From IMG/VR virus record IMGVR_UViG_3300045988_080243, positions 1-51,082 of that record: a DNA stretch of 51,082 nucleotides; one strand, given 5' to 3'. Positions 3,082 to 50,347 of this stretch are shown piece by piece. The stretch comes from a virus. Position numbers and translations under genes: made by a program. Each line of letters starts with the position of its first letter. Position 1 is the stretch's first letter. The notes under the pieces are model-generated. The model worked only from the letters and a program-made list of their open reading frames with translations. It did not search any database and was not told the origin of the DNA.

Positions 3082-3270
3082 ACGCTTCTAGACCCCTTAA
3101 ACACCCCCTCCCACCTCAACGCACCCCGGCCTGTCGCCTCACCCTCGCACACACGCACGCGTATAGCACACCAAACCCAACCATGCAACTTAAGCAACAA
3201 AGCTATCCACATCGTGAGATGTCAAGACAACTAGACACACCCTGTCGAACATAAACTGCATCCACCAAAG

Positions 3271-3326
3271 TGTTACCTGTTTCACAGCATAAAAACCTTG
3301 ACTTTTTTCTTCCTTGTTGATAAACT
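3271..3326 (+). promoter_or_regulatory. Promoter P1: box TGTTAcctgttTCACA, TTGACT-N17-TAAACT
   Basis: Box 3271-3286, -35 at 3298-3303, -10 at 3321-3326. Confidence 0.5.
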
Positions 3327-3356
3327 GCCAGGGTCACCGCCCTGAGTATGTGTAGA

Positions 3357-3380
3357 ACACACACACACACACACACACAC
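3357..3380. repeat. (AC)12 dinucleotide microsatellite
   Basis: Read directly. It lies downstream of P1. Confidence 0.95.
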
Positions 3381-3486
3381 CGCGAGGATAATTAAAAGCC
3401 GAGGCCCACACCAGCCAGCTATTGACCCCGCCTGTCGAACATACCAGTTTACGGCTAGCTAACTCGCGTTAGTTGAGCTTTCGTGA

Positions 3487-3538
3487 CCCCGCCTGACGCA
3501 CACTAACCAAGGCCCCGCCTGACGCACACTAACCAAGG
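3487..3538. repeat. Two tandem 26-bp units CCCCGCCTGACGCACACTAACCAAGG
   Basis: Read directly. A degenerate third unit follows and runs into the P2 box. Confidence 0.9.
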
Positions 3539-3546
3539 CCCCATGA

Positions 3547-3601
3547 TGTGACGCAGAACACACATTATCAAGTTGACAGCCACCTAGCACCTTGCTAAGG
3601 T
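3547..3601 (+). promoter_or_regulatory. Promoter P2: box TGTGAcgcagaACACA, TTGACA-N17-TAAGGT, with CCTAGCA..TGCTAAGG palindrome in the spacer
   Basis: Box 3547-3562, -35 at 3573-3578, -10 at 3596-3601. Confidence 0.55.
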
Positions 3602-3607
3602 GGAGTC

Positions 3608-3889
3608 ATCGGCAAGGGAAACCCGGCCAGGACGCGAAAGCGACCGCCGAGACGGCCCCGGGCGAGTACCTGAGTCCGAACGATCTTTGTGAACTGAATT
3701 ACACACGGGGGCTTGGCTTGCATCCTAGCCGTGAACGTCAGCAGCGTTCACCGTCTGCCCGTGTCGGCTAGGATGCGAACGCGCCGAAACTTTACGTTCG
3801 GTCAGTAAAATAAGCGTGAGCGCATGCCTAGGGCCGTAGGATGCTTTGTCCTGACAAAGTTGCTAGTTCAATTCTAGCTCGGCTCACCA
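3608..3889 (+). ncRNA. Candidate structured non-coding leader or ncRNA downstream of P2
   Basis: No plausible ORF. Structure includes a CGC-GAAA-GCG tetraloop hairpin, a 12-bp stem GCATCCTAGCCG/CGGCTAGGATGC (3720-3775) enclosing GTGAACG/CGTTCAC, and a tRNA-like 3' module ending in CCA. Confidence 0.25.
3831..3889 (+). ncRNA. tRNA-like minihelix: acceptor stem, short hairpin, T-arm, discriminator A and CCA
   Basis: GGGCCG pairs with CGGCTC (one G-U pair). T-arm is GCTAG-TTCAATT-CTAGC and the 3' end is ACCA. There is no D-arm and no canonical anticodon loop. Confidence 0.4.
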
Positions 3890-3907
3890 AATTCTTGAAC
3901 AAACAAA

Positions 3908-3963
3908 TGTGACGCGGTTCACACGCTGTCAGCTTGACACGGCCCCCCAGGGGGCGATAGACT
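3908..3963 (+). promoter_or_regulatory. Promoter P3: box TGTGAcgcggtTCACA, TTGACA-N18-TAGACT
   Basis: Box 3908-3923, -35 at 3934-3939, -10 at 3958-3963. The spacer contains GCCCCC-ca-GGGGGC. Confidence 0.6.
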
Positions 3964-4004
3964 GTAGTCACAAGGTCAAACACTACACCGAAAGGTTACC
4001 TACC

Positions 4005-4229
4005 ATGCTCATGCTGTCCGACCCCACCACTAACCGCCTGCCCGTGCTGCCCCTGCCGTTCCCCGACTACGAGTGCCTTAAGCATTTCTTCGCTCACGTG
4101 CCCGGCTTCAACGCCTACGACGCCGCGAAGTGGGCACAGATTACCGAGCGCGCCGCCTACGGCGACCGTATGGCTCTCGCCCGCCTTGACGCGGCAGGGT
4201 TCGCCCTGATGGTCACCACGCGGCTCTGA
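4005..4229 (+). CDS. Hypothetical protein (74 aa), paralog of 5510-5743
   Basis: ATG at 4005 lies downstream of P3 with gaaagg upstream. The track start at 3909 lies upstream of the promoter. Shares VPG[FY]..[AV].AAK.A...GD......L..AGF.L with the paralog. Confidence 0.6.
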   Translation: MLMLSDPTTNRLPVLPLPFPDYECLKHFFAHVPGFNAYDAAKWAQITERAAYGDRMALARLDAAGFALMVTTRL

Positions 4230-4236
4230 CCCCCAC

Positions 4237-4263
4237 GCCCGGCCCCCTCGCCCGGGGCCGGGC
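4237..4263 (+). terminator. GC-rich hairpin GCCCGGCCCC/GGGGCCGGGC without a U-tract
   Basis: 10-bp perfect stem directly after the stop at 4229. Confidence 0.35.
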
Positions 4264-4295
4264 ACCCTCCCTCCCAACACACCCAAGGAACTACC

Positions 4296-4511
4296 ATGTT
4301 TCGCCTTACTGTTGACGATGAATCCCGTGCTATGTCCGCGTGGGCTAGCAAGACGGCCCTACACGTAGGCGTGGATGTGATCTACGCGCCGCGCTGGGCA
4401 ACACACGTCTGGCAAGCACCTGACGGGCACCTGTACTACGTGAACGAGTCTGACATTGCTCAGATGCCCCTGACTATCACACCTGAGTGCTTTAAGCAGC
4501 TCCACCGCTAA
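4296..4511 (+). CDS. Hypothetical protein (71 aa)
   Basis: ATG ORF, co-oriented. Confidence 0.6.
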   Translation: MFRLTVDDESRAMSAWASKTALHVGVDVIYAPRWATHVWQAPDGHLYYVNESDIAQMPLTITPECFKQLHR

Positions 4512-4513
4512 GC

Positions 4514-4569
4514 AGTGACACACATCACAACCTAACAAGTTGGCAACCGCCTAGCAGCGGTGCTAGGCT
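4514..4569 (+). promoter_or_regulatory. Promoter P4: box AGTGAcacacaTCACA, TTGGCA-N18-TAGGCT, with CCTAGCA-gcgg-TGCTAGG palindrome
   Basis: Box 4514-4529, -35 at 4540-4545, -10 at 4564-4569. Confidence 0.5.
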
Positions 4570-4606
4570 GAAAGCACAAACCAAACCACACACAGAAAGT
4601 GAAACA

Positions 4607-5083
4607 ATGCTCTACTACGACTACTTTGAGGTCACCAACGCTGTCCGAGCATTCGCGGGTGACTTCGACCTCACTGCATTGATTAACGTCCTGTTTGAGG
4701 AATTGCCCCCACACCCCGAGTATGGCACGCTTTTTATCGAGCGAGAGTACACCGACGAGGAGATTCAGGCGTGCGACGTGACCAACTGGGTTTCTGCCTA
4801 CGTACCCACCGACTCAGGTGAAATAATGCTTGCCGAGCGCTGGTTCACATCCCCCAACCATGGTCCCGTACACGTGGGCGCTTGGGTGGATGGGAGCGGC
4901 ACAGTGAGTCTTTCTCTCGCGACGGTTGAGCAAGGTGGGCTGTCGCCGTGGAACAGCGGCTGTCGTTTCATTGCGGACACGCTTAAGCCTGAAACATTGG
5001 GAGCATTTGACCGGGCCTACGGTTCTCGCAAAGCCTGGGAGTCCGACCTGGCTACTGTCGAAGCAATGATTAAGCACTCCTGA
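4607..5083 (+). CDS. Hypothetical protein (158 aa)
   Basis: ATG ORF preceded by cacacagaaagtgaaaca. Confidence 0.7.
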   Translation: MLYYDYFEVTNAVRAFAGDFDLTALINVLFEELPPHPEYGTLFIEREYTDEEIQACDVTNWVSAYVPTDSGEIMLAERWFTSPNHGPVHVGAWVDGSGTVSLSLATVEQGGLSPWNSGCRFIADTLKPETLGAFDRAYGSRKAWESDLATVEAMIKHS

Positions 5084-5188
5084 CTTCAACATCCCCGTAT
5101 CAATGGCGACAAAGCCCAGTTCGATCCTGGGACGGGGAACGATGCGCAAACAGCGCACACACACCAACAAACCGAAAGGCGAATTATC

Positions 5189-5452
5189 ATGGCACACACG
5201 TTCAAGACCGATCCCGACTGGGTTAAGGAAGCGCGCGGGGAAGCATGGCACCCCTCCCGGTTCGCCCGCTACGGGTCTGCGTACACCCGGCACACCCGGG
5301 ACCTGTCGAAGCGCATCCGCGCCCGTGAGCGCCGCGAGATGGACCGCATCATGCGGGACCTTGAAGCATGGGAGGGCTACGTCCCCACGGGTAACAGCGT
5401 GATTCGCGAGTTCGACACCGCTACCAACGCTCACGCCTGGTTCGGGTACTAG
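5189..5452 (+). CDS. Hypothetical protein (87 aa, basic)
   Basis: ATG ORF preceded by cgaaaggcgaa. Confidence 0.6.
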   Translation: MAHTFKTDPDWVKEARGEAWHPSRFARYGSAYTRHTRDLSKRIRARERREMDRIMRDLEAWEGYVPTGNSVIREFDTATNAHAWFGY

Positions 5453-5465
5453 GCAACAAACCAAC

Positions 5466-5489
5466 GGGACGGGCCTAACGGCCCGTCCC
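5466..5489 (+). terminator. Hairpin GGGACGGGCC-taac-GGCCCGTCCC
   Basis: 10-bp perfect stem with a tetraloop after the stop at 5452. No U-tract. Confidence 0.35.
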
Positions 5490-5509
5490 CACACAGAAAG
5501 ACTGAAACA

Positions 5510-5743
5510 ATGGCATACCGCACGTGTACAATAACCGACCACGTTTTGTACAATTTCGAGACGTTTCCCGTTTACAATGGTGTAGTTGATCATAAGTCGC
5601 TTTGCCGTTGGTTTGGGAGCGTCCCCGGCTACGACGTGGTTAAGGCCGCGAAAATGGCTATTGCCGTCAATCTTGTTATCCTGGGGGATGCAAAGCAGAT
5701 GCGCGTGCTCACTAAGGCTGGATTCAGCCTAACGTTCCACTAA
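5510..5743 (+). CDS. Hypothetical protein (77 aa), paralog of 4005-4229
   Basis: ATG ORF preceded by cacacagaaagactgaaaca. Confidence 0.6.
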   Translation: MAYRTCTITDHVLYNFETFPVYNGVVDHKSLCRWFGSVPGYDVVKAAKMAIAVNLVILGDAKQMRVLTKAGFSLTFH

Positions 5744-5757
5744 CAGAAAGAGTGACC

Positions 5758-5871
5758 ATGGACAACCAGATTACCGAAAAACAGTACGTGCAAGCTAGCG
5801 TATTCATCGCTGCTTTCGACTTGCAGACGCTTGTTATGGAAACGAGTGCGCTTGTTGAAGCCGTGAAGTAA
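5758..5871 (+). CDS. Small hypothetical protein (37 aa)
   Basis: ATG preceded by cagaaagagtgacc. Below the ORF-track size cutoff. Confidence 0.4.
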   Translation: MDNQITEKQYVQASVFIAAFDLQTLVMETSALVEAVK

Positions 5872-5889
5872 TGGGGGACAGTTTATCAA

Positions 5890-5944
5890 TGTGAGTCAGT
5901 TCACGTACTAACAGCTTGACAACAACCCGACAACCAGATACTAT
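5890..5944 (+). promoter_or_regulatory. Promoter P5: box TGTGAgtcagtTCACG, TTGACA-N17-TACTAT
   Basis: Box 5890-5905, -35 at 5916-5921, -10 at 5939-5944. The 35 nt from 5887 through the -35 match the equivalent stretch of P3 at 27 of 35 positions. Confidence 0.6.
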
Positions 5945-5984
5945 TAAGTCATAGGCAAACACACAACAGAAAGTGAGAACACAA

Positions 5985-6164
5985 ATGCGAATCAACAAGG
6001 ACACCATGCAGGTTATCAAGGCCACCACGGCTGCCAAGATCACATTCAAGAAAATGGCTGTCGAATACCGGGACAACGCGGAAATGTTCGCCGCTATCGA
6101 CGCGGTAGTGAGCGCCCTGGATGGCCTGGCAGACGCGGCTATTGCATCTGAGATTGGAGACTGA
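5985..6164 (+). CDS. Hypothetical protein (59 aa)
   Basis: ATG at 5985 preceded by cagaaagtgagaacacaa. Confidence 0.55.
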   Translation: MRINKDTMQVIKATTAAKITFKKMAVEYRDNAEMFAAIDAVVSALDGLADAAIASEIGD

Positions 6165-18186: not shown

Positions 18187-20243
18187 AGATTCTAACTACT
18201 GACTGCGACAAGTTGCCTATTCTTGCTCAAGTCCTACTGAAGCGCGCTCGCGTGGTGTCTGGCCTCCCAGAAGACGCTCACGTCGAAATCACCGACGACG
18301 TGAACGACGAGGACATTAAGATCACTCTCGGTACTGTGAAAGGTTACAAGGGTGATGCGTACAAGACGCTATCACCTAAGCAGATTGTCAGTAACCCACA
18401 GTCTGTTCTGTTCCTCGCTCAGGCGTTGCAGTACGGCTACCTCGGTCCTGTTGATCCTAACTTGGAACTCGGCAAGGACTGGGTTATCTGGCAGGGCGAG
18501 GACATCACGTTCAAGGCGGGCACACTGATTGCACTCGACATCGAGTCCGCTGGTGACATCGACAACGACACGTTCGCGGCTGGCCGCATCCTGTCGATTG
18601 CCTTGTGGAACGGGAAGTTCGGTGTAGTCATCCCTGAAGAACTTGCTGAGACCCCCGAGTCTGCTGAGCTGATTGAGCGGCTGTGCGACACCTGCACTGT
18701 CATCTGTCACAACGGTACGTTCGACATGCCTTACCTGTCGAAGCGCCTCGGTATCCGCGTGTACCATCACGAGGATACGCTGCTCATGCACTTTGTGCTC
18801 GACAACCTTGCGGGCGAGCATGGCTTGAAGCCTCTCGCTCGTCGCTGGTTGCGCGCCGCTGACTGGGACTCTGAAGCAAAGAAGTACTTGAAGCACAATG
18901 TACACTTCGAGAACATTCCACGAGAAAAGCTGTATAAGTACAACATTTACGATTCATACTGGACCCATAGACTATATGAGTACTTCAAGCCAATGGTGGA
19001 AAAGGCGCAACAAGTCCTTAACTTCTACAAACACCGTATGCGTGTGACTCGTGTGCTTCATGACGTTCAGATGAATGGTGTTGAAGTATCACTCGATGCT
19101 CTCGATGAGCTAGAAGAGAAGTACAAGCAGCAGTGCGACGAGTACCTGGCAGTGTTGCGCAGTATTGCAGGTGAAGACTTCAATCCTCAATCTCCTAAGC
19201 AGATTGAAGCGTTCTTTAAGTCGAGGGGCGTGTCGTCCCCTTCGTATGATGCGAAGCATCTGAAGAAGCTGAAGCGCGAAGGCAAGGAACCAGAGTTCAT
19301 CGACGCCCTCCTCGCTTATCGTTATGCAGCTAAGGTGCTTGGCTCGTACATCGTGAAAGTGCGTCAAAAGCGTGGTGAAGACAGGCGTGTCCACCCACAC
19401 TACCTTCCCCACGGGGCAAAGACGGGCCGCTTGTCGGCTAAGGGTCCAGCAATTCAGACGATGGGTCGCGACAGTGGTATCAAGCGTGCACTTGTCGCTG
19501 CGCCGGGTTGCAAGATTATCTCGTGTGACTACTCCCAGGCAGAGCTGCGTACTGTCGCTGAGCTTGCGGACGACGAGGCTATGATTGCTGCCTTCCAGCC
19601 GGGTGCGCCGGACTTTTTTGACGATCTGATGACAAAGATCTGGCCAGAAGAGTTCCCGACAATCGAAGCGTACGAGGCTTTTAAGCACGAACAGCCAAAG
19701 ACCGCGAAGAACCGACGCGCACTGGTAAAGAGTGTAGTGTACGGTTTGAACTATGGACGAGGAACCAGAGCAATTGCGACAGAACTTGAGAAGCCATACG
19801 AAGAGGCCGAGTATGTTGTGAACCAGTACCTTGGTGCTTACTCGGGGCTTAGAGACTGGCAGCAGAAAGTTCGACACAGCGTGGGCAGGAAACAAGAGGA
19901 TCACATGCGACAAACCAAGTTTGGCATGAGATACAACCCTCTCTTCATTTCCGACGCCGACTACACTTCGACACAGAACGAAGCACTCGCTTTTGTTCCA
20001 CAATCGACAGCCAATGACATCTGCCTCAACGCTGCAATCAAGATCAATGAACAAGTAGGGCAGTACGGAGCTAAGCTGATTGGACTTGTCCATGATGCTA
20101 CCTATGTCGAGTGTCCAGAAGAAACCATCGAAGAGTGCTCCAAGATGATGGAATACGAAATGGCTAAGGCGGCGACACTGGTCTTTGATCGTGTGCCGTT
20201 TGCTGCTGAAGCAGAGGTCGGTAACAACTGGGAAGAGGTGTGA
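18183..20243 (+). CDS. Family A DNA polymerase (Pol I-like) with a 3'-5' exonuclease domain
   Basis: Exo motif ALDIES, motif A DYSQAELR, motif B RRALVKSVVYGLNYG, motif C LVHDA. Confidence 0.95.
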   Translation: MKILTTDCDKLPILAQVLLKRARVVSGLPEDAHVEITDDVNDEDIKITLGTVKGYKGDAYKTLSPKQIVSNPQSVLFLAQALQYGYLGPVDPNLELGKDWVIWQGEDITFKAGTLIALDIESAGDIDNDTFAAGRILSIALWNGKFGVVIPEELAETPESAELIERLCDTCTVICHNGTFDMPYLSKRLGIRVYHHEDTLLMHFVLDNLAGEHGLKPLARRWLRAADWDSEAKKYLKHNVHFENIPREKLYKYNIYDSYWTHRLYEYFKPMVEKAQQVLNFYKHRMRVTRVLHDVQMNGVEVSLDALDELEEKYKQQCDEYLAVLRSIAGEDFNPQSPKQIEAFFKSRGVSSPSYDAKHLKKLKREGKEPEFIDALLAYRYAAKVLGSYIVKVRQKRGEDRRVHPHYLPHGAKTGRLSAKGPAIQTMGRDSGIKRALVAAPGCKIISCDYSQAELRTVAELADDEAMIAAFQPGAPDFFDDLMTKIWPEEFPTIEAYEAFKHEQPKTAKNRRALVKSVVYGLNYGRGTRAIATELEKPYEEAEYVVNQYLGAYSGLRDWQQKVRHSVGRKQEDHMRQTKFGMRYNPLFISDADYTSTQNEALAFVPQSTANDICLNAAIKINEQVGQYGAKLIGLVHDATYVECPEETIEECSKMMEYEMAKAATLVFDRVPFAAEAEVGNNWEEV

Positions 20244-20536
20244 TGAACGCATCCAATTATGAAGAAGCAGCTTGCCTTAACGCTCCTGTCGAGCTGTTCT
20301 ACGATGTGAAGCTCTACGCAGATGTTGCAAGAGTGTTCTGCGAGAACTGCCCTATCAAAGAACAATGCCTTCAAGACTGCCTAGAAGCCGAACAGTATCC
20401 GGTGGATGGTAAAAAGTTCCGTTCCGGTGTCTTCGGTGGACTTTCACCTAGCGCCAGGAACGTTTATGCTGGCACAGCATATGATGTACTAAGTGATGAT
20501 TGGGAGGAAAAATATGCAGATAGTGATAGCAATTGA
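20243..20536 (+). CDS. whiB: WhiB-family Fe-S transcription factor
   Basis: Cys pattern C-x24-C-x2-C-x5-C (ACLN...FCENCPIKEQC). A GTG at 20240 is also possible. Confidence 0.8.
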   Translation: MNASNYEEAACLNAPVELFYDVKLYADVARVFCENCPIKEQCLQDCLEAEQYPVDGKKFRSGVFGGLSPSARNVYAGTAYDVLSDDWEEKYADSDSN

Positions 20537-37835: not shown

Positions 37836-40400
37836 TCACGCTAGAAATACCGACAACTCTTCCTCGAACATGAAGTCCAAGAGGTCATCCTCTTCGAGCA
37901 GGTCATCCGGCGAGTAATACTGGCCTTCTGCATCACCAGCCATAATTGCCCCAATATTCTGGTATGCATAAATGACAGCATCAAGAACGTCAGGCGACTT
38001 AATGCCACGCTTACGCATATTTTCCTTCGATTCGATAAGCATTGCCGACCCGCGATACTCGTACTTAATCGAAGCGATTTCGTTGTGAAGTTCATCGTCA
38101 TCCGGCAGGAAGACTCGACCATCAGCGACAGCTTTAGCGAACTGATCGTACATAGCAGCGCGGTAGTTGTACCACTTCGTGCTATCCCCAGACTTTGCGT
38201 TGCCGTGGATACCAACGACAGACATGCTAGGCGGCACGTAATTGTAGATACTATCGAGAACAGATGCACCGACACCAATCGCGTCAATACGAATCTCGAC
38301 AGCCCCCAGCTCCGTGGCCAGCTCACCAACCTTGCGCGCAAGCTCAGGACCATTCAAACCTTGGTAGCGGCCATGAATCCTGATGTAGCCACCCTGGTTC
38401 GACACGATCACAGAGCTGTCGGAACCATAACGTGCCACATCGACGCCCAGAGTGATCGGCATGCCCTCATCCGGCTCGGAGGTGTCGTAGGCTTCCATGG
38501 ACTGCATGACGCGCCCCATGTTGAACAAGCCATCGTCAGACACGTCAGGGAACTCGCCAAGGACACGTGCGACAAAGCGGGGGTCATCCTCACCCCATTC
38601 CTTCTTACGCGCCTCAACCCAGTCAACCTGCACAAGACGAGTCGCAACCTCAACAGGCACGACTTCGCCCGTGAAGTTAGGGGTGTCGTATGCTCCGAAC
38701 TGGATGATGTTCCACGAGCGTTCCTCTGGCTTCAGGCGCATCTCCCGCTTATACACCTCAGCCATGTAGCATGAGGGGTCATTGGGATTAGCAATGGCCA
38801 GAATGCGCGCGTACTTGTTGGTGGTGATTGCGTCGGCTGCGGTGAAGATTTCCTTGGAGATGCCACCCGCCTCGTCCATGATGACGAGGACGTACTGGTC
38901 GTGGACACCCTGAAAGCCGGACTCGTCCTTATCGTCCGGCTTCATACCGAAAGCAATAGGGTCCTGTCGGTCATCCATCTTCCACGTTGCATCGGCGTTC
39001 ACCTTGCCTCGGATACCTGCTACAGCCTTGACACGGGGAATCTCTTTCCACAGGACGTTACGTACCTGTTTCCAGTTCGTAGCCGTGGTGACAACTGTCG
39101 TGTCATCGACAGGGTGTGTGTCTACCCACCAGTTGACAAGGGTAGCTGAAAGTCGGCTGTTATGTGTCGGCACCATGTGCTCACCCACCAGGTACATGTG
39201 GCTCTCAGAGTCCACCTCGATACACTGGGTTGGCTCAGTCGGCACCGGCACGACATCGACAATGGTACGCACTGTCTTGCACGAAGACTGAGCGTCCTGT
39301 TCTGGGCGCTCAAGGCTCTTCACAGAACCGGGCGTGAACGGGTCGAACGTAGGGTTAAACACTATACGCCAGCGGGGCCCTGCATCTTCGCCATTCAGGT
39401 ACGTGCGCTCCTTAGAGACATTGCAGCGTACACCAAGGGAACGAACCAGCTCGACAACCCCGAGTGCCAACTGCTCGTTCATGAAGTCAATGCCGACACA
39501 CGTGCTTGTCTTTGTCCCGGCGTTGAAGCCATCAGTGTCCATGAGGCCACGCAGGAGGTCAATCCGCTGCTTGATAGATGCACGCAGGTACACCTGTGGT
39601 ATGTGCTTGTTGTTCAGCACACCAAGATCGCGCAGTTTAGCCTTGTAACCTTGATGAGTAAAAGCAAGACATTCAGCCGTATCCGAGTGATAAGAATACT
39701 GGTGAAGCTCAACACCTTTTTCAGCAAAAATATCTTTGATATGCTGCTTTCGATCACCAATCGTAATGCATGGGTTAGCTGAGTGACCATCACCAAGCCA
39801 TACACCAAGCACGTATGGGTCAATCAGCAGATCAACTTCTTGTCCGACAATGGGCGCGTTAATCGGAACGTAGTGATTAGCCTGATTCTGCTTGCCATGT
39901 CGCAGAGACGACATGATCTCCCGTGTCTCTCGGGTACGACCATAAGACCAACCATTACGCCAATCACCATCAATACGCTTACGCGCTCGCCTAGCCTCGT
40001 TAAAGTCTAGCGTCACCCATTCATGATTAGGCGAACAGATAAACTCCGCACCATCATTGAAGATGACCTTCACGAGGTCATGGTTCCAAATCTGCGACTT
40101 ACCAGTTACCTTAGTTGGGTGCCCATACTCGTCAAGAACATAGTCACCGACCTTAACCTCGCCGATAGTGGCCCATCCAGTAGGAGTAGGCAATTTTTCG
40201 GTTAACCGAAAATCCTTACCCGCCCCGTTCCCAGTAACCACAAGGGTTTTCTGATATTGAACAACAGACTGTGAAACTTCACGCTGCTTAGACCACATGA
40301 ACAAACCGTGGTCCTCAGCCCACTTAGCAGGGTTGTTGCGCCACACTTCAAGACGCTGAGCATCTGAGAATTTCTTGGCGACAGCACCAAAGGGCAGCAT
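37836..40400 (-). CDS. terL: Terminase large subunit interrupted by an intein
   Basis: Walker A TGNGAGK|...|S is split by a 352-aa insert. Walker B-like VIMDEAG and a C-terminal nuclease region follow. The mature protein would be about 502 aa. Confidence 0.9.
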   Translation of the reverse strand: MLPFGAVAKKFSDAQRLEVWRNNPAKWAEDHGLFMWSKQREVSQSVVQYQKTLVVTGNGAGKDFRLTEKLPTPTGWATIGEVKVGDYVLDEYGHPTKVTGKSQIWNHDLVKVIFNDGAEFICSPNHEWVTLDFNEARRARKRIDGDWRNGWSYGRTRETREIMSSLRHGKQNQANHYVPINAPIVGQEVDLLIDPYVLGVWLGDGHSANPCITIGDRKQHIKDIFAEKGVELHQYSYHSDTAECLAFTHQGYKAKLRDLGVLNNKHIPQVYLRASIKQRIDLLRGLMDTDGFNAGTKTSTCVGIDFMNEQLALGVVELVRSLGVRCNVSKERTYLNGEDAGPRWRIVFNPTFDPFTPGSVKSLERPEQDAQSSCKTVRTIVDVVPVPTEPTQCIEVDSESHMYLVGEHMVPTHNSRLSATLVNWWVDTHPVDDTTVVTTATNWKQVRNVLWKEIPRVKAVAGIRGKVNADATWKMDDRQDPIAFGMKPDDKDESGFQGVHDQYVLVIMDEAGGISKEIFTAADAITTNKYARILAIANPNDPSCYMAEVYKREMRLKPEERSWNIIQFGAYDTPNFTGEVVPVEVATRLVQVDWVEARKKEWGEDDPRFVARVLGEFPDVSDDGLFNMGRVMQSMEAYDTSEPDEGMPITLGVDVARYGSDSSVIVSNQGGYIRIHGRYQGLNGPELARKVGELATELGAVEIRIDAIGVGASVLDSIYNYVPPSMSVVGIHGNAKSGDSTKWYNYRAAMYDQFAKAVADGRVFLPDDDELHNEIASIKYEYRGSAMLIESKENMRKRGIKSPDVLDAVIYAYQNIGAIMAGDAEGQYYSPDDLLEEDDLLDFMFEEELSVFLA
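39159..40214 (-). mobile_element. Intein (class-3-type WCT signature) with a LAGLIDADG homing endonuclease domain
   Basis: There is no Cys/Ser at residue 1 (DFRLTEKLPTPTGW). Block B is SPNHEW, block F is QCIEVDSESHMYLVG, and block G is VPTHN followed by +1 Ser. LAGLIDADG motifs are LGVWLGDGH and LLRGLMDTDG. Confidence 0.8.
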
Positions 40401-44604: not shown

Positions 44605-45846
44605 TCAGCGAGTCGTACCGTATCGGCCAACGAACCAGGCCACGGCCACAGTAGCTGCACCGAACAGCAGCGACAGAATACCGATCACAGCGGCCTCAGA
44701 GGCAGCACCAGTCTTGGCCAGCTTGGCCTTCGGGGCCTCAATCGTTGGCGCGGGCTTAGGCGTAGCCTTAGTCGGTGCAGGCGTAGCCTTAGTCGGCGCG
44801 GGGACAGGCTCGATCTTGCAGGGCACACGGTCCTTATCTCGGTCAGGGTGGATCGTGCAAGGTGTCTGGGTCGGCGTGGGCGTCGGCTCATCCGAAGGCG
44901 CAGGAGTCGGCTTAGAAGGCTCAGGGGCCGGTGCAGGAGTCGGGGTCGGCTTCACAGTCCCATCGCCGTCGGTGCCTCCATTAGCCTTAATCGTTGCAGT
45001 CGCTTCCAGCTTGAGGCCATTCACCTCAGCGTGGTTGGTAACCGAGGTCTGCCCTTCTGGGACCTTCATCTGCTCTGGTGGGTAAGTGATGCAGACCTTA
45101 GACCCTTCAGGAGCTGCGAACTTGACCGTGTTACTGTCGATTCGAGTAGCGTCAATAACCTTAGTCGTAGCGGGGTCCCATGTATCAGCCGTCGCACATC
45201 GCACGGACGTGCCGAGAGTGGTGTCGAAGTCCTTAACGGTGTACTCGACACCGGCGTTAGCAACCCACTTAATCGCCCAGCCGACAGTACCGTTGTCGTT
45301 CCCCCAGCCGAACTTCAGATTCTCAGGTCGAGCGTACTCATAGTGCGCGACAGAAGCACAGTCATTTGTGCAGACGCCGGTGCCTTCAGCATCGCCCCAG
45401 ATGAGCTTCTTGACGACCTCACCATTGAGTGTGATTGTACCCTCGTTAGTGCCAACAGCGGCGTCCTGAAGCCTGGCTCTCGCCCACCACGTACCACTGA
45501 CATTGGTCTTGTCCTTATAAGACTCAGGCACCTCAGTGACCTTGCAGGTCAGCGTCGCTTGATCGGCGCTGCACTCACCAACGACAGTGCCGTCATTGAG
45601 AGCGAATGGGAAACTAGCGTTCCACTTGAAGCCTCCGTCCTTGCTGGTGACCGTGAACGCCTGGCCGACAGCCAGTCGCTCGGTGGTCCAGGTCCCGGCC
45701 ACATTGACCTCGCTAGAGGTCTGTCGAGACGCGGACGTTGCCTTGGTGACCTCGGCCTTGATCTCAGGGGTGGTGTCGGCAGCGTAGGCCGCTGCCGGGG
45801 CAGTCATCAGTAGTGCGACACCGGCTGCCGCAAGAAACTTCTTCAT
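44605..45846 (-). CDS. Secreted, sortase-anchored (LAKTG) cell-surface protein with a Pro/Thr-rich stalk; adhesin-like
   Basis: ATG at 45846 with SD gaaagga. Signal peptide is MKKFLAAAGVALLMTAPAAAYA. An Ig-like beta-rich region is followed by PTPTPAPAPEP and APTKATP repeats. The C-terminus is LAKTG, a hydrophobic helix, and RYGTTR. Confidence 0.8.
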   Translation of the reverse strand: MKKFLAAAGVALLMTAPAAAYAADTTPEIKAEVTKATSASRQTSSEVNVAGTWTTERLAVGQAFTVTSKDGGFKWNASFPFALNDGTVVGECSADQATLTCKVTEVPESYKDKTNVSGTWWARARLQDAAVGTNEGTITLNGEVVKKLIWGDAEGTGVCTNDCASVAHYEYARPENLKFGWGNDNGTVGWAIKWVANAGVEYTVKDFDTTLGTSVRCATADTWDPATTKVIDATRIDSNTVKFAAPEGSKVCITYPPEQMKVPEGQTSVTNHAEVNGLKLEATATIKANGGTDGDGTVKPTPTPAPAPEPSKPTPAPSDEPTPTPTQTPCTIHPDRDKDRVPCKIEPVPAPTKATPAPTKATPKPAPTIEAPKAKLAKTGAASEAAVIGILSLLFGAATVAVAWFVGRYGTTR

Positions 45847-45940
45847 TGTGTTAATGGTCCTTTCGTAGTTATCCGGGCTGACAACATTTAGTGTATCTGA
45901 CAGACTGAACAACTTACAAGGTATAACAGCGTGACTCTAC

Positions 45941-46963
45941 TCACAGCATGATGAATACTAGGGCCACTTCTTCGCGCACCCAGTCATTCGGCCTAGGTGC
46001 AGGTGCAGGTGTCGGTTCAGGAGTGGGAGTCGGCGGCACCACGACAGGGGGCTGTGGTGTTGGGGGCACTACAACTGGCGGCTCAGGTTGGGGCTGTGGT
46101 GCAATGTATGCGTACTTACTAGCAAGGTCAACACCATCAGAGAGAACATCTACTGTCCCCGGCTCATCAAGGCTAATAACACGCACATAGTCAACAAGCA
46201 TAGAGGAGGGATATTGTTCCTTAAACTTCGTCGCATCAACGTACTTGTCGTGCCCTTCTTCTGTGCCACCAGAATCCAGGAATTGGCCTCCAATAATATA
46301 AGACAAACGAATGATCCAACCATTCTCAGGATTAGTAAAAGGTGTCGGATCGTCCATATCAGAGTACCTAACTGTGTGGAGGATCCGACCATCACAATAG
46401 AAGTGAATAAGCTCATTGAGCTTAACAACGCTATAAGTGTGGAAGAAATCTTTAATATTGATTTTCCCTGCGGAACCAGACTTCTTAAAAGTTTTCGCAA
46501 ACTGCTGGCTCTTAGTGCCAGTAGCGTCACCGGCGCGCGGAGTGTGAGTGTTCATCTGGTAATCGTCGGACTGCCAGCCTTTAGCTTCAATGACATCAAT
46601 CTCGCCACAAGCAGGCCAGTCACCTTTAGTGCCAGTCATCCAGATACCAGGCCAGGATGAGAAAGCATAGGGCATCTGCGCACGCACGGACAGAATAAAC
46701 TGTCCCTTAGCCTGGAAAAGAACCTCGCCCTTATCTGGCTTGCGCGTACTCACCATACCCGACAAGAATGGTGCCTTCTCAGCATCAGTGCCCTCGGCAA
46801 CAGTCCCTGTCAGTTTAAGGTTCCCTCTCGCAACAGAGATATTTTTGTCCGAAAAACGCATCTGAGTGCCCTTATTGGGATCGAACTTACCCCAGGTGGG
46901 TGACCACATAGATGTATTAAGTGAGTCCCCAGTGAAATCATCGAAGAAAATCTGCTTAGCCAT
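45941..46963 (-). CDS. Glycoside hydrolase family 16-like (beta-glucanase fold) with a Pro-rich C-terminal tail
   Basis: Catalytic signature GEIDVIE (E-x-D-x-x-E) and WPGIWMTG. There is no signal peptide and no SD. The C-terminus is PPVVVPPTPQPPVVVPPTPTPEPTPAPAP. Confidence 0.75.
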   Translation of the reverse strand: MAKQIFFDDFTGDSLNTSMWSPTWGKFDPNKGTQMRFSDKNISVARGNLKLTGTVAEGTDAEKAPFLSGMVSTRKPDKGEVLFQAKGQFILSVRAQMPYAFSSWPGIWMTGTKGDWPACGEIDVIEAKGWQSDDYQMNTHTPRAGDATGTKSQQFAKTFKKSGSAGKINIKDFFHTYSVVKLNELIHFYCDGRILHTVRYSDMDDPTPFTNPENGWIIRLSYIIGGQFLDSGGTEEGHDKYVDATKFKEQYPSSMLVDYVRVISLDEPGTVDVLSDGVDLASKYAYIAPQPQPEPPVVVPPTPQPPVVVPPTPTPEPTPAPAPRPNDWVREEVALVFIML

Positions 46964-47522: not shown

Positions 47523-47552
47523 AGTATATGTCCGCTCTTTCTGAGCCGTCAA
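47523..47552 (-). promoter_or_regulatory. Promoter TTGACG-N18-TATACT upstream of tRNA-Leu
   Basis: -35 at 47552-47547 and -10 at 47528-47523 on the minus strand. Confidence 0.5.
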
Positions 47553-47573
47553 CCCTATACCGCGTGATGCGTG

Positions 47574-47915
47574 TCACTCTTCATAGTTGAGAAGTGTTGC
47601 TACTTGATCCCGATCACGCAAAAGCATATGGATGATATCAGCGTCATGAAATAGTGCCAAGCCAGTAACACTTGGTGTAGCACGAACCCAGTACTCCCTA
47701 TGGACCTTTAGGTATGCACCGCGCTCATGCATAACAATGATGCTTCCACACCTTGCAACAAAGCAAAAGTCCCGGCATGAACCTATAGAAACAGGGGCAC
47801 CCAGCCCATTATGATCGACACACCAGACGTTGAGATCATCAATCGGAATGTCACGCAGCTTGCTGAGCTTTCCTTGTGTCTCTGCCCAGAGTTCACAAAA
47901 CCCGTTGTCGCTCAT
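47574..47915 (-). CDS. Hypothetical protein (113 aa), paralog of 47912-48142
   Basis: Shared core C[RQ]DF....G.[IM]I[VI]...G.[YW]LK[VI]....W between the two products. Confidence 0.6.
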   Translation of the reverse strand: MSDNGFCELWAETQGKLSKLRDIPIDDLNVWCVDHNGLGAPVSIGSCRDFCFVARCGSIIVMHERGAYLKVHREYWVRATPSVTGLALFHDADIIHMLLRDRDQVATLLNYEE

Positions 47916-48711: not shown

Positions 48712-48741
48712 ATACTAATGCTCTCTACCGTCGCCTATCAA
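48712..48741 (-). promoter_or_regulatory. Internal promoter TTGATA-N18-TAGTAT
   Basis: -35 at 48741-48736 and -10 at 48717-48712 on the minus strand. Confidence 0.45.
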
Positions 48742-48785
48742 CAACTACCCGCGTGACGTGTACCACATCATTGTGAGGGCAAAAT

Positions 48786-49946: not shown

Positions 49947-50347
49947 CAGTTCTCATCTCCACTCGTTTGCATGTTGATATCAGGAAGGATCGTCTCAGGC
50001 CTGAAGGCAACCTTGTAGTGGAACGTATCAACAGACGAGGCGTCCATCTGCTCCACGAAGTAGGTCACGTTATCGGAGATTCCCAAGTAGTGCTTCTTGA
50101 ACTCACCCTCACCCGTCTTGCAGGTGACTTCGAGCTGCAGGTCTTCCTTATCCTTTGTGATCGAGCACAAGCCTTCGATGCTCAGAAGGTACTTATCCGT
50201 GATGCCATTTACAAATACGACACGGCGCATCACCTTGAAGTTGTCACTGTCGTAGCTGATGTTGCGTGAAGCAGTATCAGCCGCACTACAAGCACCAAGC
50301 GACAGGGCCACAGCAACCATAGCGACACAGCCAAAAATCTTCTTCAT
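49946..50347 (-). CDS. Lipoprotein (133 aa)
   Basis: Signal peptide with lipobox MKKIFGCVAMVAVALSLGAC; SD ggaggag. Confidence 0.7.
   Translation of the reverse strand: MKKIFGCVAMVAVALSLGACSAADTASRNISYDSDNFKVMRRVVFVNGITDKYLLSIEGLCSITKDKEDLQLEVTCKTGEGEFKKHYLGISDNVTYFVEQMDASSVDTFHYKVAFRPETILPDINMQTSGDEN

Follow-up and report, generated by a model that had tools for sequence, protein, structure and literature searches.

What reads a CRP-type palindrome that stands at one fixed distance upstream of nearly every promoter of a virus? The question is raised by IMG/VR record IMGVR_UViG_3300045988_080243, whose 51,082 nucleotides (nt) were analyzed in full and are referred to here as the window. The element concerned is a 16-bp box, TGTGA-N6-TCACA, separated by a linker of usually 10 nt (the gap) from the −35 hexamer of a sigma-A-type promoter, and box, linker, and promoter together are termed the composite. 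The composite has a well-defined anatomy, occurs non-randomly, keeps a rigid and helically phased spacing, is conserved over the promoters of a mosaic region, and has spread to unrelated viral lineages. From this arrangement we infer, conditionally, the identity of the binder, activation in preference to repression, the transcription start sites, and a dependence on cyclic AMP (cAMP). The leading interpretation, to which we give about an even chance, is that the box is the site of a dimeric regulator of the CRP/FNR family, most likely host Crp/GlxR, acting as an activator.

Anatomy of the Box Promoters

The original prediction described five boxes (P1 to P5) and a sixth, and all of them, along with their promoter elements, were found in the window with the sequences and at the coordinates it had given. 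P1 to P5 each deviate from TGTGA-N6-TCACA by at most one mismatch, with P3 a perfect match, and each box ends 10 nt (11 nt in P1) before a TTGACA-like −35 that is followed by N17–18 and a TAnnnT −10, again as described. One figure had to be corrected, namely the identity of P3 and P5, for which the best alignment gives 26/35 instead of 27/35. The boxes had also been presented as marks of early rightward promoters. All five are indeed on rightward promoters and are real, but the label is too narrow, since three leftward promoters carry a box as well and the boxes belong to nearly all sigma-A-type promoters on both strands. The promoters and boxes are as follows.

3271–3326, + strand: P1; box TGTTACCTGTTTCACA at 3271–3286, 11-nt linker, −35 TTGACT at 3298–3303, N17, −10 TAAACT at 3321–3326
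3547–3601, + strand: P2; box TGTGACGCAGAACACA at 3547–3562, 10-nt linker, −35 TTGACA at 3573–3578, N17, −10 TAAGGT at 3596–3601
3688–3703, + strand: sixth box, TGTGAACTGAATTACA, inside the P2 transcript
3908–3963, + strand: P3; perfect box TGTGACGCGGTTCACA at 3908–3923, 10-nt linker, −35 TTGACA at 3934–3939, N18, −10 TAGACT at 3958–3963
4514–4569, + strand: P4; box AGTGACACACATCACA at 4514–4529, 10-nt linker, −35 TTGGCA at 4540–4545, N18, −10 TAGGCT at 4564–4569
5890–5944, + strand: P5; box TGTGAGTCAGTTCACG at 5890–5905, 10-nt linker, −35 TTGACA at 5916–5921, N17, −10 TACTAT at 5939–5944
48712–48767, − strand: leftward promoter; box TGTGGTACACGTCACG at 48767–48752, 10 nt, −35 TTGATA at 48741–48736, N18, −10 TAGTAT at 48717–48712
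47523–47578, − strand: leftward promoter; box AGTGACACGCATCACG at 47578–47563, 10 nt, −35 TTGACG at 47552–47547, N18, −10 TATACT at 47528–47523
45890–45945, − strand: leftward promoter; box TGTGAGTAGAGTCACG at 45945–45930, 10 nt, −35 TTGTAA at 45919–45914, N18, −10 TACACT at 45895–45890
2138–2192, − strand: leftward promoter with half a box; −35 TTGACC at 2166–2161, N17, −10 TATACT at 2143–2138

P1 has the weakest box (one mismatch) and the sole 11-nt gap. P3, P4, and P5 lie upstream of genes at 4005–4229, 4607–5083, and 5985–6164, respectively, and the ~290 nt downstream of P2 hold no convincing open reading frame (ORF). No −35 or −10 was found at the right distance behind the sixth box. On the other strand, the promoter at 47523–47578 is ~70 nt upstream of a tRNA-Leu(CAA) (47453–47368), that at 45890–45945 precedes the gene of a LAKTG-anchored surface protein, and that at 2138–2192 retains only the promoter-proximal half-site, GTCACA (2182–2177), at the canonical 10-nt distance. 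In total, ~9 intergenic sequences of the window resemble sigma-A promoters, and 8 of these have a full box or a half-site. A sigma-A-like promoter before the primase gene (15820) has no box.

Enrichment and Conserved Spacing

The 51-kb window has 8 boxes that deviate from the consensus by no more than one mismatch, as against 2.5 ± 1.5 in shuffled sequences, and six of the eight lie within 3271–5905. Boxes at two mismatches, taken alone, are not enriched (28 vs. 31 in shuffles), and the signal therefore resides in the composite. When this is defined as a box with ≤2 mismatches, a gap of 9–11 nt, a −35 with ≤2 mismatches, a spacer of 16–19 nt, and TAnnnT, the window has eight composites (P1 to P5 and three on the minus strand), compared with 0.29 ± 0.56 and a maximum of 3 in 200 Markov simulations. 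In the window scan, no composite box overlaps a −35 or −10.

Conservation was assessed in the window and 52 related IMG/VR contigs of ~50 kb, which are not independent samples. Promoters were chosen by TTGACA-N17/18-TAnnnT alone, independently of the box, and removal of pairs >80% identical left 45 promoters, 43 of which are oriented as the helicase gene. A box with ≤2 mismatches was present at a gap of 10 in 31 of the 45, at a gap of 9 in one, and at a gap of 11 in one, while gaps of 4–8 and 12–19 yielded none. Loss of the spacing in related phages had been named beforehand as an outcome that would speak against the prediction; instead, the gap is exactly 10 in 31 of the 33 box-bearing promoters.

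The early region of these phages is mosaic. Each window promoter has orthologues in few relatives only, and most early genes occur in some relatives only. P2-type promoters, for example, also occur in L004, L008, L013, L016, and L033, whereas orthologues of P5 are found in L002, L004, L011, L018, L020, and L026. The differing, non-orthologous promoters of the relatives nevertheless bear the same box. In the family sequence logo, information is concentrated in the two half-sites, and the 6-nt spacer and outer flanks are variable; the same is seen among orthologues of P4 (L002, L011, L018, L020, and L047), which keep the half-sites and vary in the spacer. A linker pattern, T-n-n-C-A-n-G, directly before TTGACA is also informative in the family and is replaced by an A/T-rich tract in lineages other than that of the window.

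Linker and −35 together (e.g., 3927–3939) form a partial palindrome, TGTCAA-N-TTGACA, which is perfect in L016 and nearly so in P3. This palindrome may be another protein-binding site, one that overlaps the −35.

These data bear on whether the box is a protein site at all. That the palindrome might instead form a short hairpin left over from a terminator and placed before each promoter, or be an inherited, functionless part of a mobile promoter cassette, strikes us as scarcely credible. Several window boxes do lie a few nt past a stop codon, and an element from Clostridia found with the same search pattern has a true terminator stem-loop before its promoter. However, the stem of the box would have 5 bp and a 6-nt loop, its flanks do not pair (A at position −1 in 26 of 38 family sites, T at +16 in 12 of 38), and it has no T-run, on which grounds an intrinsic terminator hairpin was rejected. 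The half-site letters are moreover conserved with no compensatory change, and their spacing to the −35 is base-exact in 31 of 33 promoters, something that a terminator would not need.

Recurrence in Other Viral Contigs

The composite is not confined to this family. The exact string TGTGA-N6-TCACA-N10-TTGACA occurs in at least 120 unrelated IMG/VR contigs of 35–62% G+C. Together these loci have 134 sites, most of which continue with TAnnnT at the right distance; 13 contigs have 2–4 copies, and 93 sites are left after removal of similar sequences.

To leave the distance free, IMG/VR was also scanned for the box, any gap of 0–30 nt, and a −35 plus −10. Among the 120 matches listed, a gap of 10 was found 44 times (at least 37%), a gap of 9 ten times, and a gap of 11 three times; gaps of 19–22 accounted for 22 matches and gaps of 29–30 for 16, with about one match at each other gap. 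With peaks at ~10, ~20, and ~30, the box keeps to a single helical face, which is the behavior expected of an activator in contact with RNA polymerase.

Several variants came to light in the course of these scans. In a lineage of 35–40% G+C (e.g., L116, L120, L123, L136, and L170), an ATG follows 6–7 nt past the −10 (TAAGATTAGTTTATG), which implies that the predicted box promoters of these phages yield leaderless mRNAs. One phage lineage (L255, L269, L288, L295, L298, L307, L310, and L314) has the box, then an additional palindrome, GACACGCCGTGT, and then a pair of −35 hexamers that overlap, TTGACTTTTTGACA, such that the box is one turn further upstream (gaps of 21/29). A protein resembling the sigma-70 family is encoded in 21 box-bearing actinophage-like contigs (e.g., a 229-amino acid [aa] ORF on the − strand of L129). 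This assignment was made by reading the C-terminal sequence as sigma region 4-like, and such phages may also redirect RNA polymerase by a sigma factor of their own. Finally, the clostridial element mentioned above is a repeat in MAGs (metagenome-assembled genomes) of Acutalibacteraceae (L186, L191, L193, L205, L208, L211, L218, L219, L222, L239, and L242), in which the “box” is a stem-loop, AAAGGTGTGAC-TTCG-GTCACACCTTT, followed by a consensus promoter. It is a look-alike with a different logic.

Identity of the Box

In Actinobacteria, TGTGA-N6-TCACA is the consensus of Crp/GlxR, its established reader (PMC4218801, PMC7999487), and that of GlxR has been given as TGTGANNTANNTCACA, with a central TA (PMC4254451). 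Comparison with the published actinobacterial consensus bears out the resemblance originally proposed, as the box agrees in its half-sites, its conserved G4 and C13, and its variable spacer. A broad set drawn from other lineages comprises 76 sites after removal of redundancy. Of these, 58 have A at position 8, while position 7 has A in 28 and T in 27, a pattern that recalls the central TA of GlxR.

Half-sites of TGTGA type are recognized by more than one family of regulators, and the reader could in principle be another host regulator of such palindromes, for instance Rex, a Cmr-like CRP/FNR paralogue, or a protein of LacI/GalR type, serving mainly as a repressor or roadblock. An A of Rex type does occupy position 5 in the sixth box (3688), which reads TGTGAA-N4-ATTACA. 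Rex needs TGTGAA/TTCACA, however, and A at position 5 is found in none of the 38 family sites and in three of the 76 broad-set sites, the broad set having C or T there and hardly ever A; the Rex operator (TTGTGAA-N4-TTCACAA, with A5 and T10) was rejected for this reason. In addition, the box is in every case clear of the −35, the −10, and the predicted start site, and its rigid spacing and helical phasing suit activation better than occlusion. We regard this alternative as very unlikely. An operator or stoperator of a phage repressor was likewise rejected, given that no helix-turn-helix (HTH) repressor or integrase was detected among the ~50 window proteins and that the sites never overlap the −35 or −10.

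Position of the Box and Proposed Mechanism

With the start assumed ~7 nt past the predicted −10 and a spacer of 17–18 nt, the 10-nt linker places the 16-bp core at about −61 to −46 and its predicted center at about −53.5/−54.5. The site is thus upstream of the −35 without overlap, and it keeps one helical face (gaps of 9–10, 19–22, and 29–30 among the viral matches listed). In Mycobacterium tuberculosis, CRP sites cluster between −60 and −40, and genes with lowered expression in a crp mutant have sites at −54.5 (Rv1592c), −57.5 (whiB1), and −59.5 (Rv1057) (PMC4117774). The center inferred for the phage promoters falls in this range and adjoins the CRP-activated sites.

In the mechanism proposed here, a dimer of a host CRP-family protein would bind the box on one face of the DNA, directly upstream of a consensus sigma-A promoter (TTGACA, N17–18, TAnnnT), with a 22-bp footprint that leaves ~7 bp to the −35 hexamer. 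From there, the dimer would reach RNA polymerase through the carboxy-terminal domain of the alpha subunit (alpha-CTD) and/or sigma-A region 4, or through a protein bound to region 4. Such contact would stabilize the sigma-A holoenzyme on phage promoters and raise their occupancy, and phage transcription would then scale with the amount of the regulator or with its cAMP state. Phage expression would track the regulator because nearly all promoters bear the box, and the program so covered would comprise both early arms, the tRNA, the gene of the surface protein, and, last in the rightward operon, the phage whiB.

Points Weighing Against Host Crp/GlxR

A number of observations weigh against host Crp/GlxR as the reader. 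First, the center of the box in the window family is CA, not TA, and is asymmetric (C7 in 36 of 38 sites, A8 in 29 of 38). Second, the predicted position matches neither class I (−61.5, −71.5) nor class II (−41.5) of E. coli. At such a position, alpha-CTD in the class I geometry would collide with sigma region 4, as judged from structures of CAP-alphaCTD-DNA. Third, the −35 and −10 of the phage promoters are already near consensus, and it is therefore not evident why they would require an activator. Fourth, contigs of the family sit in conflicting species-level metagenome-assembled genomes (MAGs), namely one each of Rothia and Atopobium and two of Actinomyces. Fifth, the composite was not found in Arthrobacter phage Molivia, Streptomyces phage RetrieverFever, or Clavibacter phage CN1A, the three cultured phages (relatives, or relatives by gene) in which it was sought.

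Sixth, and bearing on geometry, the variable-gap scan of 596 Gb of cellular genomes gave a gap of 10 in 3 of the 120 matches listed, the mean being ~3.9 per gap; mild peaks among these matches are at 7–9, 17–18, and 27–28. The gap-10 excess is therefore viral and not cellular, which makes this geometry characteristic of phages and not of host regulons.

Individual chromosomal cases do exist. A perfect CRP-type palindrome, in the form TGTGACAyATGTCACA-N10-TTGACA, stands before a leader and a 3D-domain gene in five MAGs of Actinomycetes/Acidimicrobiia, and a second gap-10 case precedes a cold-shock gene in Armatimonadota. On sequence, these show that cells could use the arrangement, but they are examples and not statistical support, because cellular genomes have no gap-10 excess.

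The leader of the first case is ~190 nt long and highly conserved (GAGAAAAGACAAGG...GCGCTGGTTCGTATCTC...), and precedes the gene of a 3D-domain cell-wall protein (L188, 2836–3075; also L189, L192, L210, and L241). A search of Rfam gave no family above threshold for it, and it may be an undescribed leader RNA.

WhiB and the Search for a Phage-Encoded Binder

If the host does not supply the reader, the phage might. The window encodes one recognizable transcription factor, which is conserved in all 18 relatives:

20240–20536, + strand: WhiB-family protein, 98 aa; C-X22-CxxC-X5-C, GVFGG turn, acidic C-terminus; PF02467, E = 1.3e−9

Its sequence matches in PDB include WhiB7. Pfam and PHROGs scans of the ~50 window proteins detected no CRP-family or HTH protein; a match to KilAC was weak and below the Pfam cutoff. 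PDB sequence searches with two conserved small window proteins were negative.

Every ORF of the window was then compared with the full ORF complement of the 120 unrelated loci that bear the box. WhiB was the sole window protein shared with them (25 loci by BLASTP, 35 by phmmer), and its family was the most widespread one, present in 43 of the 120 loci and in 43 of the 87 with a GC content of at least 0.43. It was absent from all 33 low-GC box-bearing loci (320 kb in total). WhiB proteins are described as confined to Actinobacteria and their phages (PMC13013590). The WhiB common to these lineages therefore marks them as actinophages. The matches of one protein from the low-GC group are mainly to actinophages as well.

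WhiB itself is unlikely to be the box reader. Proteins of the WhiB-like (Wbl) family bind sigma-A region 4, the tail of the window protein is acidic, the low-GC loci lack it, and its gene closes a 17-kb rightward operon that starts at the box promoters; moreover, Molivia and RetrieverFever are annotated with WhiB and have no composite. A promoter of WhiB7 type, which combines an A/T-rich tract ~3 bp before the −35 with a Wbl protein ending in an AT-hook, was also rejected: the broad set has an A/T-rich tract 4–6 nt upstream of the −35, but the phage WhiB has no AT-hook.

A subtler role is conceivable, in which WhiB on sigma-A region 4 at the −35 cooperates with a box-bound dimer one turn upstream, as it does with WhiA, to define a phage-specific promoter class. 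By this analogy, the gap-10 class would be a host CRP/GlxR dimer coupled to region 4 through a phage or host Wbl protein, which would explain the host-type box, the enrichment of the rigid 10-nt geometry in actinophages and not in cells, and WhiB as the sole shared protein. Consistent with such coupling, the short fixed linker sets the proximal half-site beside the −35 and sigma region 4, in many loci whiB follows a box promoter of the same strand at a distance of 2–4 kb, and the A/T-rich tract of the broad set recalls promoters of WhiB7 type. Nonetheless, the low-GC loci and the two WhiB-bearing cultured phages tell against it, as do the acidic C-terminus, the distal place of whiB in an operon begun by box promoters, and the consideration that co-occurrence may merely mark actinophages. 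On balance, we hold this cooperation to be improbable.

Unlikely too, if less so, is a phage-encoded dimeric protein of CRP-like specificity and without detectable homology, acting as an activator or as a shut-off of all phage promoters. Its main support is the strong excess of gap-10 composites in viral contigs, which has no counterpart in cellular genomes, among the matches listed. Phage activators that act from about −55 exist, such as Ogr of P2 and Delta of P4, and most early proteins of the window phage are orphans with no Pfam or PHROG match. The candidate would be a basic early protein of 87 aa (5189–5452), the best-conserved small early protein, found in 17 of 18 relatives. In a single-sequence AlphaFold model, however, it is predicted with low confidence to be mostly one long helix and not an HTH. 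Apart from WhiB, no window protein is homologous to any in the 120 unrelated loci (phmmer, E = 0.01), and a sequence-specific phage protein common to all lineages should be detectable in such a comparison, just as an identical specificity should leave a recognizable DNA-reading domain. The earliest promoters, furthermore, must fire ahead of phage protein synthesis, and the early region is mosaic, yet each module carries the same box. With WhiB the only protein in common, it is unlikely that all these phages encode one DNA binder, and a factor conserved in actinobacterial hosts would explain the shared box.

The suggestion that phage transcription is wired to a host CRP-type regulator thus stands in part. 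The consensus match, the rigid conservation, the actinophage character of the virus, and the lack of a detected phage CRP or HTH protein favor it; the viral-only gap-10 excess and a position that is not that of E. coli promoters do not.

Comparison with Known Systems

The closest known systems are class I CRP promoters (E. coli lac) and Crp/GlxR promoters (whiB1 and Rv1592c of M. tuberculosis, the GlxR regulon of Corynebacterium glutamicum). Like these, the phage promoters have a 16-bp TGTGA-N6-TCACA upstream of, and clear of, a sigma-70/sigma-A promoter, and they share the dependence on helical phase, with peaks at 10, ~20, and ~30 among the viral matches listed. The broad phage set also has a GlxR-like central A, and box promoters upstream of a phage whiB parallel the link from CRP to whiB1 in M. 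tuberculosis. Unlike the E. coli classes, the phage box is centered at about −53.5, not −61.5 or −41.5, before a core promoter that is already consensus. Unlike CRP/GlxR regulons, it is found on nearly all viral promoters and not on a metabolic regulon, and a gap of 10 is enriched in viral DNA only.

Late promoters of phages P2 and P4 have a dyad, TGT...ACA, near −55, which is read by a small Cys4 protein (Ogr/Delta) that contacts RNA polymerase. They resemble the present promoters in being phage promoters with a dyad-symmetric element near −55. In contrast, the dyad there is TGT-N12-ACA and here TGT-N10-ACA, and the P2/P4 promoters are without a good −35 and come from phages of proteobacteria. 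The window yielded no Ogr-like protein; its sole Cys4 protein is WhiB, and WhiB binds sigma and not an Ogr-type dyad.

At WhiA/WhiB and WhiB7 promoters, sigma-A region 4 at the −35 is occupied by a Wbl protein, and directly upstream of the −35 there is a sequence element. The phage promoters likewise have an element just upstream of the −35, an A/T-rich tract in the broad set, and a phage-encoded Wbl. The upstream element here is a CRP-type palindrome, however, instead of the GACAC of WhiA or the AT-hook site of WhiB7, and, unlike WhiB7, the phage WhiB has no basic tail or AT-hook and the low-GC box-bearing loci have no whiB.

In temperate actinophages such as the Cluster A mycobacteriophages, the phage repressor binds stoperators, which are 13-mers without symmetry that lie dispersed downstream of promoters. 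They, too, are a short motif repeated through a phage genome in fixed orientation to transcription, whereas the box is a palindrome with a single fixed place before the −35, and the scans of the ~50 proteins detected neither a repressor nor an integrase.

Full-text searches of the literature turned up no account of actinophage promoters with CRP-type boxes, nor of a gap-10 spacing rule. The type of site is known; what appears to be new is its rigid placement at −53.5, its use on almost every viral promoter, and its recurrence over actinophage lineages.

The Phage and Its Host

The gene content of the window is that of a complete or almost complete phage genome. The replication genes, read rightward at ~4.0–21 kb, encode an SNF2 helicase, a Cas4-type exonuclease, AAA_24, DUF669, a primase, PolA, and WhiB. 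Genes for lysis and structure are read leftward from ~43 to 21 kb, and a leftward arm of small genes runs from a large non-coding region (~2.2–3.3 kb) across the window ends and down to ~47 kb. No near relative of the phage or of its promoter region was found among 50,697 deposited phages (INPHARED).

The primase is closest to those of Arthrobacter and Gordonia phages, at ~27% identity, also to primases of Microbacterium, Streptomyces, and Clavibacter phages. The window additionally encodes a lipoprotein of the Mycobacterium-phage VG64 family and a surface protein with an LAKTG sorting signal (LAxTG type). WhiB, the VG64 family protein, the LAxTG-anchored protein, and the affinity of the primase all point to an actinobacterial host, and on these sequence affinities the window phage is an actinophage.

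Attempts at a finer host assignment relied on individual proteins. The surface protein has ~2,000 homologues in public assemblies, and the best 120 are all phage copies. A 112-kb contig with such a homologue has phage genes only, within 21 kb of its length. Searches of 185,579 species genomes with the endolysin and the surface protein returned only phage-sized contigs in conflicting MAGs plus one weak match in Bacillota, and an exact look-up of the window WhiB protein gave no match.

Two further points concern the gene content. An 854-aa ORF (37836–40400, − strand), terminase-like by position, contains a homing-endonuclease (intein-type) domain, PF05204, and an intein is annotated at the equivalent position in the related Clavibacter phage CN1A. 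Putative phage-carried accessory genes lie at 44605–46963 (− strand) and 49949–50347 (− strand), the candidates being a glycoside hydrolase of family GH16 with a Pro-rich tail, the LAKTG sortase-motif protein, which has a signal peptide and whose gene has its own box promoter, and the VG64 family lipoprotein.

Other Features Near the Promoters

The predicted P2 transcript (3603–3895, + strand) has a stable fold (−117 kcal/mol, z = −3.4), in which the 5′ end pairs with the 3′ end. Its 3′ part resembles a tRNA acceptor stem and T-arm (GCUAG-UUCAAUU-CUAGC) and ends in ACCA, which gives it the look of a transfer-messenger RNA (tmRNA) or tRNA. ARAGORN and Rfam made no call on this transcript, the Rfam scan of the region giving only a sub-threshold match on the wrong strand.

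The large non-coding region has origin-like features between 2400 and 3000. These consist of arrays of repeats spaced by ~20 nt (CCTAAC-type at 2409–2525 and four copies of TTTATTACACACAA at 2613–2714), an A/T-rich palindromic stretch (2725–2778), three copies of the palindrome GCATAACTATGCAT (at 2815, 2835, and 2960), and pyrimidine-rich repeats (2856–2955).

Closer to the promoters, a perfect 26-bp tandem duplication, CCCCGCCTGACGCACACTAACCAAGG, at 3487–3538 is directly upstream of the P2 box, and a second repeat, CCTGTCGAACATA, is found at 3234–3253 and 3424–3443, that is, upstream of P1 and of the 26-bp duplication. Both repeats may be sites for another regulator. Between P1 and P2 there is a (CA)n microsatellite of ~11 units (3358–3380). 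The leaders at 4590–4610, 5493–5513, 5741–5761, and 5963–5988 are C/A-rich and have ribosome-binding sites of the form AGAAAG, not GGAGG; AGAAAG would pair with the extreme 3′ end of 16S rRNA of actinobacterial type.

Significance

Phages with this layout probably tie their transcription to a cAMP-responsive regulator of the host. If host Crp/GlxR reads the box, transcription of the window phage would be almost wholly conditional on a central regulator of host carbon and energy metabolism, in a phage family that is abundant in human-associated samples. The arrangement also points to a geometry of CRP activation, centered near −53.5, that sets it apart from the classes known in E. coli. As a tool, the 55-nt cassette would offer actinobacterial genetics a compact, strong promoter module that is probably Crp-dependent. 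Should the coupling of the box to a Wbl protein prove true, many actinophages would gate their whole transcription program on both the cAMP and the redox state of the host. More broadly, the presence of the same architecture in many unrelated actinophage-like lineages suggests a general, so far undescribed means by which these viruses sense host physiology.

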